From a virus (taxonomy: Duplodnaviria; Heunggongvirae; Uroviricota; Caudoviricetes), in IMG/VR virus record IMGVR_UViG_2562617113_000010: 12,174 nt of DNA; one strand, given 5' to 3'. The notes beneath the pieces were generated by a model. It did not search any database. It saw only the letters and a program-made list of their open reading frames with translations, and was not told where the DNA came from. Of the stretch, positions 4,110 to 7,665 are shown piece after piece (positions within the stretch are counted from its first letter, which is position 1; each line of letters opens with the position of its first letter). Made by a program: the position numbers and the translations under genes.

Positions 4110-4591
4110 GACAGCAGCCCTCCCACCGTTTTACTGATATCGCTTAAAGCAGATGTTGCCGTTTCCTGCAGATTATTCAGTTGCGCACTGAGATCACCGA
4201 ACATATCGGACAGGGATTCATCCACCCGTTTGAGCGACAGGGTGAACTCAATCCGGCGCGGCATACCATCGCGGAAAAACTCCGTTTTAGTCTGATTCAG
4301 TCCCTCAATCACATACATGCCGTAAATCGTGCCGCTGCCTTCAATCAGGGGCCATGCTTTTCCCTGTTCTGCCATCTGCTCCAGAGCCAGCAACGACAGC
4401 CTGCCGCCCGTTATCTCCGGCATAAGAACACCAGAAAGCGTCAGCATGTCGTTGTCCGCTCCCAGAAACTGCGTGGACGGACGTCGGTTGACCCGGCTGT
4501 TTGCCGCATGTCGCCAGCTGCGTTGATACTGCAGTTCCTGATACGGCACAGTGCGCAGCATAAACACGTACAATCCCAGCACCATCATCAT
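4106..4591 (-). CDS. U: Phage tail protein U
   Basis: 161-aa ORF similar to P2 gpU (about 159 aa) in length and N-terminal sequence. Its ATG overlaps the T stop (ATGA), indicating translational coupling. Confidence 0.85.
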   Translation of the reverse strand: MMMVLGLYVFMLRTVPYQELQYQRSWRHAANSRVNRRPSTQFLGADNDMLTLSGVLMPEITGGRLSLLALEQMAEQGKAWPLIEGSGTIYGMYVIEGLNQTKTEFFRDGMPRRIEFTLSLKRVDESLSDMFGDLSAQLNNLQETATSALSDISKTVGGLLS

Positions 4592-7500
4592 GCGTCGTAT
4601 CCCCCCTGATCGCTGTAGTTACTCCTGGCTTTTGCCTTCAGTCTGCGCTCACGTTCATCAAGCTGGCGGGCCACCTCCCGCGCAATATCCTGCGCACTTT
4701 GTCCTGGCTGCGTCTGAATGATGATCTGCGTCGGTGCCTCAATCCGGTAAATGGGCGGCACAGTAGCTGCACGACTCACCATCGCTTCACCGCCTTTCGC
4801 GGGAAGCGCCAAAGGATGCAACGGTGGAAGCTCTGCTGGCGCGGCAGCAACACCCATCATTCCGGCGACAACGGCAGCCAGTGCAGCTGTATTTCTCCGG
4901 CTGGTCACATTTGCCGGGCCGTTAACAATTTCCGGCCCGTTTTCACCGACGATGCCAAACTGCCCACGCGGGATATAGCCGCCGCTGTCATACATACCCG
5001 CAAAGCCATATCCCCATGACGGAAAATCACCCGATGGCATCATCACTTTACCGTCTGCATTCACCGTCGCAGGTTGCTGACGCGTCACGCTTTCCGGTAG
5101 TTTTGCCTTTGCGGCCTCTTTACTGACAATGCCGAGTTTCTCCAGCAACCAGGAAACGCCGGATTTCAGGGAGTCCAGCGGATGCATGACCATATTCAGC
5201 CCTTCCGCCAGTGCCTCCCCGAATCGCCGCCCCATTGCCGCTGCACTCTGCAGTTCGGCAGAGGTCGACTTAACGGGCGTCAGCAGATCAGTAAACCAGC
5301 CCCACAGCGCCTGTACTTTGTCGCCAATCCACTGAAACACAGGCTTAAGTGGTTCGAATGCAGCACTGATGGGACCTGCCGCCGCTTTGAATCCTTCCAC
5401 CACGCCACCAAGAAATGCGGTGATGGGTTGCCAGTATTTCCAGACAACCAGCGCCACGCCCGCCAGTGCAGTAACCACAAGACCTATCGGACTGAGCAGA
5501 GCACCTAACAGACCAGATACGGCATACAGGGCAACGCGCAGCATCGCCAGTGGACCAGATGCCAGTACTCGCAGCACCGTGCCTGCGGCGGCCAGTCCAC
5601 CGCGCAGTACCGCCAGAGGATTCATAAACATCACAGCAACAGCACGTAAACCGGATAATCCAGACCGCAAAAGTGCAACCGGCGCACCTGCTACAGTTTT
5701 CAGGACATTTCCCGTCAGTAATGCCGTGCGGCGCAAAGACGACAACGGCGCAGTAAGTAAACCTGCGGCGTTGCCCGATGAAGCAAGCCCGCGTCGCAGC
5801 AGTGCCAGTGGTGCGCCAGCCAGCCAGGACAACGCGCTGCTGGTTCGAGTTACTGCTGCCGTAACGGAAGGTAACGTTTTGATACCCAGCACAGAGAATC
5901 CCAGACGGATCACTGCCAGCGGCCCCAGCACTGCAGCCAGCGCCACCGCTAAGGTGCCGAGGCCTACGGTAACCGCAGCCACAACAGCCGCTACTTTCAT
6001 CAGTGTGCCTGTCAGTTCCGGGTTAGCTTCCACCCAGCGGCGCAACGCCCCCGTGATGCTTTTCACCGTGTACAGAATATCCATCAGCGGCTGGCGCAGC
6101 GTTTCGCCCAGGCTGCTGAAGGTGTTCTGCGCTCCGGTTTTGACCAGCAACCACTGAGCAGAAAGTGAGTCTTTGTTGATGTCGGATTCTTTCTGCATGG
6201 AGCCGAGCGCATCATTGCCCGCTGTCAGTTTTAACTGACGCTGCAGTTCCGGCAGGTTGTTTGCCAGTTTCGCCGCGTCATCGCCAAACTCTTTACCAAA
6301 CAACATAGTCATGGCAGACAGGCGCTTGTCCTGCGGCAGCGCGTTCACCTTCTCCAGCACGCGCTGGATGGTTCCCATCGCATCCTTCGTCATCTGCTTT
6401 TCAATCACTTCAGGATTGAGTTTCAGCAGATTCATCCCTTCAAAGAAACTCTTGCTTTGCATGGTGGCAATGGACAATTCACGCACCATCGCGTTTGCTG
6501 CACTGGCTGCAACCTCCGGCGCAGCACCCAGAGTCAGGAAGGTGGAACCCAGCGCCGCAGCTTTACGATAATCCAGACGGTCAGCCACACCGCCCAGACG
6601 TTGCATCACATCAATGATGTCCGCCCCTTTCGACATGGCGTTATCATCCAGATAGTTCAGCGCATCGCCGAGCTGTTCAATATTGCGGGTAGGTATTTTG
6701 TAGAGCTGGGCGATTTTCCCCAGACTTTCTGACAGTTCATCCGCTGGCAGCTCAAAGGCTGTTGCCGCCTTTGCTGCCGTGCTGGCGAAGGCCAGCAGGT
6801 CACGTTTCTGGTCTTCCCAGCTGTCGTCAGGGTTTGCGACGTTCATGCGCGCACCACCTTCAACCAGTGCGGCGAAATCCACAGCACCGTTTTCCATCGG
6901 CAACTGTTCGCTGGCAGCCTTGATGGCATCCTGCATTTCATAAAAACGCGCGGTGCGATTGCCATTATCATCACGCAGACCATTGACCTGCTTTGCCACA
7001 CCTTTCATGGCATCTTCCATGCTGGTATAGCTTTTTACTGCCGCCATCACTGGTGCGCCCATTGCCAGCCCTGCAGCCGTGGTGGTGGCTCCGGCACCTG
7101 CAATACGATCACGCACCTCCAGCGAACGGGCATAACTGGCACGTGCTGCATTCATCCTGCGCTGAGCTTCCCCCAGTCGCTTCAGCCGCGCCTCCTGTTT
7201 CGAAAGTTCCTGGTTATAACGTGATGTTTCACGGGCTAAACGGGCAGTTGCTCCCGCATCATCTTTCGCAGAAATTCCCGCCCGGTACAGTTCTGCACGC
7301 ACAAGCGCCGTTTGCTTCTGCAAATATTTTTGTTGTTCTTCCAGGCGTTGGACTGCCAGCGTTTGCCGACCTAAAGCCACAAGGTGCCGTTGTGATGGTT
7401 GTTCCATCGCCTCCAGCTCAAAGCTAAGCAAATTAGCCTTCTGTCTGGCATAGTTCAGCCTGTCGCCTAACTTCTTGTTATCGGCCTGCAGCTTGCGAAA

Positions 7501-7665
7501 TTTTTCCAGGCTGTTACCCGCCTGATTGAGTTGCTTTAATGCGTCACGGGAGTTTCTGATTGCGCCAGCCAGCTCTTTCGAACTGGCCTGTGCAGCACGG
7601 AATGGGCGGGTGAGTTTGTCAACCGCATTAAGAATGACCTGCAGGCGCAGGTTGTTATCACTCAT
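4588..7665 (-). CDS. T: Tail tape measure protein
   Basis: 1025-aa ORF in the gpT position between E/E' and U. Charged, Q/R/K-rich N-terminal region consistent with coiled coil (inferred from composition), a central Ala/Leu/Gly-rich region with degenerate repeats of roughly 20 aa (PLAxLRxGL...), and a Gly-rich C-terminal motif GGYIPRGQFGIVGENGPEIV typical of tape measure proteins. Confidence 0.9.
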   Translation of the reverse strand: MSDNNLRLQVILNAVDKLTRPFRAAQASSKELAGAIRNSRDALKQLNQAGNSLEKFRKLQADNKKLGDRLNYARQKANLLSFELEAMEQPSQRHLVALGRQTLAVQRLEEQQKYLQKQTALVRAELYRAGISAKDDAGATARLARETSRYNQELSKQEARLKRLGEAQRRMNAARASYARSLEVRDRIAGAGATTTAAGLAMGAPVMAAVKSYTSMEDAMKGVAKQVNGLRDDNGNRTARFYEMQDAIKAASEQLPMENGAVDFAALVEGGARMNVANPDDSWEDQKRDLLAFASTAAKAATAFELPADELSESLGKIAQLYKIPTRNIEQLGDALNYLDDNAMSKGADIIDVMQRLGGVADRLDYRKAAALGSTFLTLGAAPEVAASAANAMVRELSIATMQSKSFFEGMNLLKLNPEVIEKQMTKDAMGTIQRVLEKVNALPQDKRLSAMTMLFGKEFGDDAAKLANNLPELQRQLKLTAGNDALGSMQKESDINKDSLSAQWLLVKTGAQNTFSSLGETLRQPLMDILYTVKSITGALRRWVEANPELTGTLMKVAAVVAAVTVGLGTLAVALAAVLGPLAVIRLGFSVLGIKTLPSVTAAVTRTSSALSWLAGAPLALLRRGLASSGNAAGLLTAPLSSLRRTALLTGNVLKTVAGAPVALLRSGLSGLRAVAVMFMNPLAVLRGGLAAAGTVLRVLASGPLAMLRVALYAVSGLLGALLSPIGLVVTALAGVALVVWKYWQPITAFLGGVVEGFKAAAGPISAAFEPLKPVFQWIGDKVQALWGWFTDLLTPVKSTSAELQSAAAMGRRFGEALAEGLNMVMHPLDSLKSGVSWLLEKLGIVSKEAAKAKLPESVTRQQPATVNADGKVMMPSGDFPSWGYGFAGMYDSGGYIPRGQFGIVGENGPEIVNGPANVTSRRNTAALAAVVAGMMGVAAAPAELPPLHPLALPAKGGEAMVSRAATVPPIYRIEAPTQIIIQTQPGQSAQDIAREVARQLDERERRLKAKARSNYSDQGGYDA

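Follow-up and report, generated by a model that had tools for sequence, protein, structure and literature searches.

The 1025-residue tape measure protein of an Escherichia coli P2-like prophage is probably an ordinary gpT orthologue with an old, modal six-unit repeat array

Proportionality between the length of a tail's tape measure protein (TMP) and that of the tail has been established for lambda, TP901-1 and other phages (PMC3271669, PMC5099701). One class of siphophage TMPs (TP901-1, lactococcal p2, and Staphylococcus and Clostridium phages) carries arrays of 11/18-aa tandem units marked by Trp or Phe (Belcaid et al. 2011), and in TP901-1 the repeats and a hydrophobic segment both add to tail length (PMC3271669, PMC5099701). 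In the P2 family, the TMP is gpT, which has 815 aa in P2 (NC_070904.1) and in pro147, 813 aa in 186-type phages and 935 aa in the Felsduovirus members Fels-2, SopEPhi, RE-2010 and SEN8. Two annotated TMPs have 1025 aa, one from Klebsiella phage 4LV2017 (Elveevirus; YP_009789858.1) and one from a prophage of E. coli A38 (WP_001407127.1). The protein T described here, encoded in a 12,174-nt window (the whole stretch of DNA that was analysed), has 98.5% protein and 97% nucleotide identity to that of 4LV2017 and 100% nucleotide identity to that of A38, and the same 1025-aa T is found in Escherichia phages 500465-1 (96.6% protein identity) and Cartapus (89.3%). The six-unit array and the FI-FII-E/E'-T-U-D context are common to all four and the window, with no substantive difference. 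The gene is a correctly annotated and very common TMP gene, and we consider it very likely that its product is an ordinary P2 gpT-orthologous TMP of an Elveevirus/Fels-2-type P2-family prophage, with an old, modal six-unit array that undergoes in-frame turnover of units.

The prophage adjoins ybjL-ybjM-grxA, and the E. coli chromosome that carries it is in essence that of strain A38. Its tail gene order, FI-FII-E/E'-T-U-D-ogr, is canonical for the P2 family and identical in synteny to P2 (Table 1). T lies directly downstream of the E/E+E' frameshift pair, whose layout is likewise annotated in 4LV2017, SEN8 and A38, and upstream of U and D, which is the genomic context of a TMP; T shares 8 nt with the end of E' at its start and 4 nt with the start of U at its stop. 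Profile matches concur with this context, namely those to PF10145 (67.4 bits, above the curated cut-off of 33.2), TIGR01760 (313.8 bits against a cut-off of 28.8) and phrog_28 (E 1.4e-197).

Table 1. Coordinates of T, its parts and the neighbouring genes in the window
Feature	Position	Strand	Basis
Gene D, baseplate hub / late control D	3009..4109	-	PF05954
Gene U	4106..4591	-	PF06995, E 6e-44
Gene T, tail tape measure protein	4588..7665	-	1025 aa + stop, ATG start
T aa 856-1025, C-terminal region	4591..5100	-	mostly non-helical in low-confidence AF2 model (DSSP)
T aa 885-926, motif GYGFAGMYDSGGYIPRGQFGIVGENGPEIV	4888..5013	-	tblastn matches in unrelated phage TMPs
T aa 543-781 (239 aa), low-charge hydrophobic zone	5323..6039	-	window criterion
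Antisense ORF, 262 aa, over T aa ~504-766, not a gene	5369..6157	+	largest antisense ORF
T aa 582-725, six-unit Pro-initiated array, motif PLAxLR	5491..5922	-	motif positions, 43-aa offset statistic, unit table
T aa 200-567, conserved TMP core domain	5965..7068	-	TIGR01760 aa 200-567, PF10145 aa 246-457
T aa 1-184, N-terminal charged coiled coil	7114..7665	-	24-32% charged residues
E' extension	7658..7837	-	-1 frameshift at TTTTTTG 7837-7831; TGA at 7660-7658
Gene E, tail assembly chaperone	7792..8094	-	PF10109
Gene FII, tail tube protein	8149..8664	-	PF04985, E 9e-60
Gene FI, tail sheath protein, interrupted by 1-nt deletion between 8893/8894	8674..9845	-	PF04984, PF22671, PF17482

The deletion in FI, seen in alignments to 4LV2017 and A38, truncates the sheath protein to 343 aa and could be taken to mean that the prophage is defective and that the length of T is phenotypically meaningless here. 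We regard this as improbable. The whole window aligns with E. coli A38 with 0 mismatches, and compared to the RefSeq A38 chromosome it differs only by three 1-nt indels at short same-base runs without any substitution, as expected of errors made in sequencing or polishing. In RefSeq A38 the sheath gene is intact and D is marked as frameshifted, whereas D is intact in the window; moreover, the deletion is absent from the best 25 sheath matches of 1003 matching genomes, each of which has 1302 nt against 1301 in the window. The sheath frameshift is therefore a probable sequencing or polishing error.

An earlier note on this DNA, made from the sequence alone, had described T as unusually long, a view that does not survive comparison with its relatives: 1025 aa is the standard allele of the prophage lineage, with 9661 members in a single 1025-aa cluster. 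Of 5426 complete E. coli genomes, 1079 match the gene, and in nearly all of these the match has exactly 3078 nt, a span shown by all full-length matches (53/53) in a sample of such genomes. The prophage is a very common P2-like type of E. coli and Klebsiella in which this T length is normal; for the window itself the finding matters little. Across the family (65 full-length representatives of 50% clusters), T proteins range from 694 to 1194 aa with a median of 911 aa, and 18% have at least 1025 aa. Among the longer relatives, a 1139-aa class features a diverged duplication of a ~114-aa C-terminal segment, while a 1107-aa class seemingly reads past the normal stop, probably as a frameshift artefact; a search for inserted enzymatic domains in these two classes found none.

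In its anatomy T is typical of TMPs, being long and for the most part alpha-helical, with hydrophobic segments in its interior. Of an AF2 model built on a 24-sequence alignment (mean pLDDT 43, pTM 0.26), we drew only on the coiled coil at the N-terminus and on the secondary structure. DSSP assigns helix from aa 3 to ~850, with pLDDT above 65 only at aa ~30-300, and the sole confidently modelled part is the N-terminal coiled coil (helices at aa 3-86, 92-128 and 136-192; pLDDT 74-91 over aa ~30-160). This region has 184 aa against 183 aa in P2, which we take as the same length. It is followed by the core domain, near-invariant in the alignment of 24 homologues, the hydrophobic zone, and a conserved helical segment (aa 782-855). 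The C-terminal region harbors the motif GYGFAGMYDSGGYIPRGQFGIVGENGPEIV, which is common to TMPs of Pseudomonas, Vibrio, Stenotrophomonas, Xanthomonas and Acinetobacter phages (59-67% identity), a widely shared motif of the form GGYIP...VGE.GPE.

Orthology to P2 gpT is evident from collinear similarity along the entire protein in an orthologous locus: BLASTP aligns aa 4-626 with P2 aa 3-608 (25% identity, E 2e-35) and aa 658-874 with P2 aa 541-743 (38% identity, E 6e-41), and the 186-type protein agrees with T in position and architecture as well. The lengths compared in the earlier note (1025 against about 815 aa) are borne out, with an excess of 210 aa over P2. We divided this excess by a MAFFT-based accounting of segments in T, P2, 186-type phages, P88, SEN4 and SEN8. 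The array, with 144 aa in T against 38 aa in P2, where the strict PLAxLR motif is absent, contributes 106 aa (50%); the C-terminal region, with 170 aa against 89 aa, contributes 81 aa (39%); and the N-terminal 581 aa contribute 23 aa, with the segments in aa 726-855 being identical in length to P2. The repeat region, which the earlier note had called expanded, thus supplies the largest single share, but a further 39% lies outside the repeats at the C-terminus. The excess of the array over P2 corresponds to about five units. The TMPs of Fels-2, SopEPhi, RE-2010 and SEN8 are collinear with T over the whole length (63-71% identity) and share the N-terminal, core, hydrophobic-lead and C-terminal regions, but lack 86 aa equivalent to exactly units 2-5, i.e., two 43-aa double units; the only other difference is 4 aa at the C-terminus. 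Expansion of the hydrophobic zone as the driver of length variation holds only within this close lineage and fails family-wide, where total T length and zone length show no significant relationship (slope 0.12, r 0.19).

The hydrophobic zone, which had been put at about 250 aa, is indeed of this size by our criterion, compared to 128 aa in P2 and a family median of 168 aa. Between aa 551 and 750 it consists of 58-68% Ala, Leu, Gly and Val with 4-10% charged residues, and Kyte-Doolittle values exceed 1.6 at aa 551-596 and 705-745. The proposed degenerate repeats of about 20 aa are likewise real, with units of 21-22 aa, but the clear array occupies only 144 aa rather than the whole zone. The motif P[LV]A[LVM]LR recurs at aa 582, 619, 640, 662, 683 and 705 (spacings of 37, 21, 22, 21 and 22 aa), delimiting units of 37, 21, 22, 21, 22 and 21 aa, and self-comparison of T gives the best offset at 43 aa (mean BLOSUM62 score 0.72, whereas none of 200 shuffles exceeded 0.38). 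Identity between the degenerate units is low (2-10 of 21 positions), and the array as a whole lacks Asp/Glu but has 13 Arg/Lys, along with 7 Pro and 16 Gly. Like the siphophage repeat TMPs, T has an array internal to the TMP in which unit number changes by duplication and loss. Unlike them, its period is 21-22 aa (with a 43-aa double unit), its marks are Pro and Arg, its hydrophobic region is made up of the repeats, and the tail of its phage type is contractile. The array contains just 3 Phe/Trp residues, the pattern [FW]-x10-[FW]-x10-[FW] has no match in T, and by the [FW]-x(10)-[FW] periodicity T falls outside the 11/18-aa aromatic-marked class.

An alignment of 23 close T homologues reveals how the array turns over. 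It is the most variable stretch of T, and almost all length differences among close relatives fall within it, the boundaries of whole-unit indels being located at PLAxLR. The alleles comprise forms of 1047 aa (+22 aa, an exact unit duplication; 24 contigs), 1003 aa (-22 aa; one cluster has 1764 members), 988 aa (-37 aa), 961 aa (-64 aa, three units; 5 and 10 contigs) and the 935 aa of SEN8 (-86 aa, four units). In the 1047-aa allele, the duplication spans 66 nt, with 65/66 positions identical between the copies and the junction in CC(T/A)CTGGCG. Off-register alleles (-28, -50 and -75 aa) are found on only one or two contigs each and could come from decaying prophages. We propose that the short stretch of DNA microhomology encoding PLAxLR is where unequal recombination or slippage acts as the array evolves, yielding in-frame T alleles that differ by whole units.

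Such events make it conceivable that the extra length of T arose by recent slippage in this particular prophage, and besides the near-perfect duplication of the 1047-aa allele there is an exact 45-aa duplication in P0037. For the window, we consider this explanation highly improbable. TRF (minimum score 30) found no DNA tandem repeat in it and only a 17-nt motif family recurs in the DNA repeat search, on which ground we rejected recent slippage in its allele, and the weak identity between its units and the uniform 3078-nt length in sampled E. coli point the same way. Six units are also retained at 75-83% protein identity in relatives from Citrobacter, Lelliottia, Scandinavium, Enterobacter and Yersinia phages, including the plaque-forming Yersinia phage MLG42 (T of 1021 aa), indicating that the expansion is old. 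Hence, of the earlier suggestion of expansion by slippage, the gain and loss of units in the lineage stands while a recent event in this allele does not, and from these sequence comparisons the allele appears to be the old, modal six-unit form.

By analogy to other tailed phages, T would fill the lumen of the tube during assembly and set its length, with gpE and gpE+E' acting as its putative chaperones; after contraction it would leave the tube, and the hydrophobic zone would insert into the inner membrane and aid the passage of DNA. If the array counts as part of the ruler at ~1.5 Å per residue, the tail would exceed the 135 nm of P2 by 15-20 nm (4-5 tube rings), and a tail longer than that of P2 is plausible. 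The full quarter suggested earlier, which supposes that the whole of T rules at the P2 ratio (135 nm/815 aa = 1.66 Å per residue) and gives ~170 nm, is probably too high, and we judge it unlikely despite the proportionality in lambda, TP901-1 and others. The literature values for tails of T relatives are inconsistent. P88, with a T of 935 aa (120 aa more than pro147), has a near-normal tail of 137-140 nm, just 6-9 nm longer than the 130-131 nm that its study gives for pro147, and SEN4 (974 aa) lies within a reported range of 107-149 nm, the SEN-phage dimensions being given only as a range, and so has at most 149 nm. Segment accounting places the extra T length of both at the C-terminus and not in the repeats; this is the mostly non-helical region that also accounts for 81 of the 210 extra residues of T. 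P88 and SEN4 come close to the case that the earlier note had named as contrary to a longer tail, relatives combining a long T with a normal tail, but with their extra length C-terminal. Together, these tails imply that T length is not converted to tail length at a fixed rate in the family, and they counsel caution within Peduoviridae, where tail length is not predictable from TMP length alone.

For phages with a six-unit array, the literature offers no reliable tail measurement, MLG42 being the only one described: papers on 4LV2017, 500465-1 and KP12 contain no electron microscopy, Cartapus was never visualised, and a urinary coliphage paper gives no tail lengths. The reported size of MLG42, whose tail is given as 234 nm, is notably above that of 186-type phages, which would favor the longer estimate. 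However, its 128-nm head for a 31-kb genome indicates an error of scale, the tail is 1.8 times the head where the table that lists it gives a ratio of 2.2 to 186-type phages with an 813-aa T, and its dimensions look mis-scaled.

A further possibility, which we hold to be a minority one though less doubtful than the quarter-longer tail, is that the array lies outside the ruler as a membrane-insertion, channel or chaperone-binding module, the tail having about the length of that of P2 or Fels-2 and the unit number varying neutrally or adapting to the host envelope. The array is both hydrophobic and cationic, its Pro-delimited segments of 21-22 residues have the length of transmembrane helices and contain small-xxx-small motifs, and conservation within T is lowest there. 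Phages that were isolated in infectious form include bearers of both two units (Fels-2, SopEPhi, SEN8) and six units (MLG42). A link between chaperone binding and hydrophobic stretches of TMPs has been described, and in the contractile phage T4 a transmembrane segment of gp29 is implicated in channel formation (preprint 10.64898/2026.03.06.709160). Against this, deletion of the hydrophobic Tm2-3 segment in TP901-1 did shorten the tail, from 118 to 107.6 nm (PMC5099701). Before ejection T must fit the lumen of the tube, where added residues need space unless folded back, and the middle units, with 1-2 Arg each, score below the usual transmembrane threshold. The array is rich in Pro and Gly and poorly modelled by AF2, and any conformation assigned to it in the tube would be conjectural.

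Returning to the array as part of a ruler, the 21-22-aa unit might be its natural length quantum in the P2 family, equivalent to about one tube/sheath ring, an idea we consider doubtful. The ring rise in R-type pyocin structures is ~3.8 nm, and if the 815 aa of P2 gpT span 135 nm, ~23 aa would correspond to each such ring. Were the unit to equal a ring, the 935/961/1003/1025/1047-aa alleles would constitute a standing tail-length polymorphism of 1-5 rings among otherwise near-identical prophages, present in the wild in phages of E. coli, Salmonella and Klebsiella and perhaps adjusted to how thick the capsule or envelope is, and a ready allelic series for how a contractile-tail ruler counts rings. 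More generally, near-identical prophages with T alleles differing by whole units form a modestly useful natural series, which could test whether the hydrophobic part of a TMP, presumed to insert into the membrane, has a share in the ruler too and whether the tails of contractile phages change in ring-sized steps.

The repeat region had also been said to generate long spurious antisense ORFs. The 262-aa antisense ORF has no Pfam match, and its 273-codon stop-free run is reached in 23% of codon-order shuffles, suggesting that it is a by-product of codon composition; we accordingly rejected the antisense ORFs as genes. They exist as claimed, but the largest is not much more tied to the repeats than to the gene as a whole, since 10% of whole-gene shuffles give a run as long as the one observed.

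We found that T, the window's tape measure protein (TMP) for the tail, is encoded on the minus strand, in a P2-family prophage's late tail operon (see the table). T passes the curated thresholds of both PF10145 and TIGR01760 in profile searches, matches phrog_28 with an E-value of 1e-197, and its gene shares 97% DNA identity with the one annotated as TMP in Klebsiella phage 4LV2017, a member of the genus Elveevirus. The earlier note, a sequence-only reading, gave T 1025 aa against about 815 aa for P2 gpT, with a central hydrophobic region of about 250 aa built of degenerate repeats of about 20 aa, and each of these points is borne out. 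T is longer than the 815-aa gpT by 210 aa, and a low-charge hydrophobic zone spans aa 543-781 (239 aa by a window criterion), with Ala, Leu, Gly and Val making up 58-68% of aa 551-750 and very few charges. This zone contains an array of six units, in which the P[LV]A[LVM]LR motif starts at aa 582, 619, 640, 662, 683 and 705 (unit lengths 37, 21, 22, 21, 22 and 21 aa). The units are degenerate, with 2-10 of 21 residues common between them, and the top self-similarity offset is 43 aa (mean BLOSUM62 0.72, where the highest value among 200 shuffles was 0.38); the array holds 13 Arg/Lys, 7 Pro and 16 Gly, and no Asp/Glu. The antisense ORFs that the note ascribed to the repeats as spurious products do exist, and the largest of them overlies the zone and has no family match; its stop-free length is reached in 23% of codon-order shuffles.

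Features of the window and of T, with the length differences of T segments from P2 gpT
Feature	Position	Strand	Remark
ybjM, host gene	132-509		
ybjL, host gene beyond ogr	779-2464		
ogr	2700-2951	-	
D	3009-4109	-	
U	4106-4591	-	
T, tape measure	4588-7665	-	1025 aa
C-terminal motif of T	4888-5013		T aa 885-926
Largest antisense ORF	5369-6157		
Slippery site TTTTTTG in E	7837-7831	-	E' extension ends at 7658
Chaperone E	7792-8094	-	
Tube FII	8149-8664	-	
Sheath FI	9845 down to ~8674	-	
Hin/Gin-type DNA invertase	9988-10560	-	
Gp53-like_C / Caudo_TAP, first set	10582-11388	+	
Gp53-like_C / Caudo_TAP, second set	11360-12168	-	
T segment	aa 1-184		+1 residue
T segment	aa 185-542		+16 residues
T segment	aa 543-581		+6 residues
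T segment, repeat array	aa 582-725		+106 residues
T segment	aa 726-855		0 residues
T segment, C-terminal region	aa 856-1025		+81 residues

To apportion the extra length, T was aligned in MAFFT with P2, one phage of the 186 type and the P2-family phages P88, SEN4 and SEN8, and the alignment was cut at landmarks of T. The array accounts for half of the excess over P2 (106 of the 210 aa), as the earlier placement of the added residues in the repeats would have it; that placement fails for the C-terminal region, which contributes 39% (81 of the 210) and, in an AF2 model of low confidence, is largely non-helical. P88 and SEN4 also carry their extra residues in this region. Relative to the 935-aa TMPs of the Fels-2 type, 86 of the 90 extra residues of T are array units 2-5. 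The C-terminal region also displays a motif, GGYIPRGQFGIVGENGPEIV, with 59-67% identity to TMPs of unrelated phages, both siphophages and myophages, whose hosts are Pseudomonas, Vibrio, Xanthomonas, Stenotrophomonas and Acinetobacter. P2 and 186 keep only 'GGYIP' of this motif, which may be a conserved element for docking to the hub or tip.

T is not, as the note had it, unusually long. Of 5426 complete E. coli genomes, 1079 give a match to its gene; when the ranking was sampled at even spacing, all 53 full-length matches spanned exactly 3078 nt. One cluster of 1025-aa proteins comprises 9661 sequences. Family members, taken as 65 full-length representatives of clusters at 50% identity, range over 694-1194 aa (median 911, 18% at least 1025 aa) and their hydrophobic zones over 74-395 aa (median 168), placing T at about the 80th-88th percentile: long-ish, not an outlier. 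The gene is already public under the right name and is among the commonest E. coli prophage genes; T is a real feature but an ordinary object.

Expansion by slippage, the alternative raised in the note, fares unevenly. No DNA tandem repeat was found in the window's own array, where a 17-nt motif encoding PLAxLR is the only recurring DNA element, and relatives from Citrobacter, Lelliottia, Scandinavium and Enterobacter as well as Yersinia phage MLG42 keep all six units at 75-83% identity, so the expansion is old. Relatives nevertheless gain and lose whole units: among proteins 79-97% identical to T, length classes are accounted for by in-frame array changes, namely an exact duplication of unit 5 (1047 aa; 24 contigs) and the loss of one unit (1003 aa, including a cluster of 1764 sequences), of the 37-aa unit (988 aa) or of three units (961 aa), with rarer off-register deletions of 28, 50, 75 and ~101 aa in one or two contigs each. 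The two 66-nt copies of the 1047-aa allele agree at 65 of 66 positions, and the one mismatch falls at the junction CC(T/A)CTGGCG, which is what an unequal exchange between the start of unit 5 and that of unit 6 would give. The 43-aa offset, together with the 86-aa difference from Fels-2, suggests that the array grew by double units. The array is a live hot spot of length change. Length classes arising outside it include an exact duplication of 45 aa at aa ~799 (1070 aa; relative P0037), a diverged ~114-aa C-terminal duplication including the GGYIP motif (1139 aa; P0001, P0020-P0031) and a form that seems to continue beyond the usual stop (1107 aa; P0045-P0055), probably a frameshift artefact. 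The literature searched yielded no account of this polymorphism of 21-22 aa units; the polymorphism belongs to the known theme of repeats gained and lost in TMPs, and the units are unlike the siphophage TMP repeats, which are 11/18 aa long and marked by Trp/Phe (PMC3271669).

Beyond the established identity, context, anatomy, sites of length difference and unit turnover of T, its action is predicted from the family: gpE and gpE+E' would hold T soluble, T would template tube polymerisation on the hub, contraction would expel it, and its hydrophobic zone would then engage the inner membrane. A transmembrane segment of T4 gp29 has been assigned to channel formation (preprint 10.64898/2026.03.06.709160). 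The cationic Pro/Gly-rich units are candidates for a ruler, a membrane module, chaperone-binding sites, or all three. The precedent of lambda and TP901-1 suggests that a TMP with added residues would give a longer tail; in TP901-1, a hydrophobic-segment deletion likewise took the tail from 118 down to 107.6 nm (PMC5099701). The conversion from TMP to tail length is not constant within Peduoviridae: in one paper the tail of P88 (T of 935 aa) measures 137-140 nm versus 130-131 nm for pro147 (815 aa) (PMC5285337), and that of SEN4 (974 aa) falls inside a reported range of 107-149 nm (PMC5261728). The sole measured six-unit phage, MLG42, is reported with a 234-nm tail (PMC11126057), which is not credible as scaled because a 128-nm head is given for its 31-kb genome; these sizes look mis-scaled. 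This phage (vB_YpM_MLG42, PP599993.1) is a Felsduovirus in its publication and an Elveevirus in database taxonomy, and its 1021-aa T bears the six-unit Elveevirus-type array, not the two-unit Fels-2 type. If the small N-terminal additions count at 1.5 Å per residue together with the array, we infer a tail of ~150-155 nm for the prophage, with the quarter-longer tail of the earlier note (~170 nm) as an upper bound. The unit-number alleles form a natural allelic series, modestly useful for testing the contractile-tail ruler.

There are no substitutions between the window, over its full length, and the RefSeq chromosome of E. coli A38 (NZ_CP028738.1); they differ by three 1-nt indels, each at a short run of a repeated base: ~3263 (D), ~89 (near grxA) and 8893/8894 (FI). 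The last is a deletion in the window (ATCG-AGGT versus ATCGAAGGT) that shifts the frame after aa ~318, leaving an FI ORF of 343 rather than 390 aa with the remaining C-terminal domain intact in another frame. It is absent from the best 25 sheath matches of 1003 matching E. coli genomes and probably arose as an error of sequencing or polishing. D is marked as frameshifted in RefSeq A38 and is intact in the window, whereas FI is intact in RefSeq and broken in the window; the two look like one genome in two different polishings.

Beside the invertase, ORFs for the tail-fibre C-terminus (Gp53-like_C) and tail-fibre assembly (Caudo_TAP) occur as two sets in opposite orientation, and together (9988-12174) these constitute an inversion switch for host range. 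Within the window no inverted repeat made a convincing crossover site, and the outer one is therefore probably located past 12174. At the other end, the ogr side of the prophage adjoins ybjL (2465-2700), a junction also seen in other E. coli genomes with the 1047-aa T allele.
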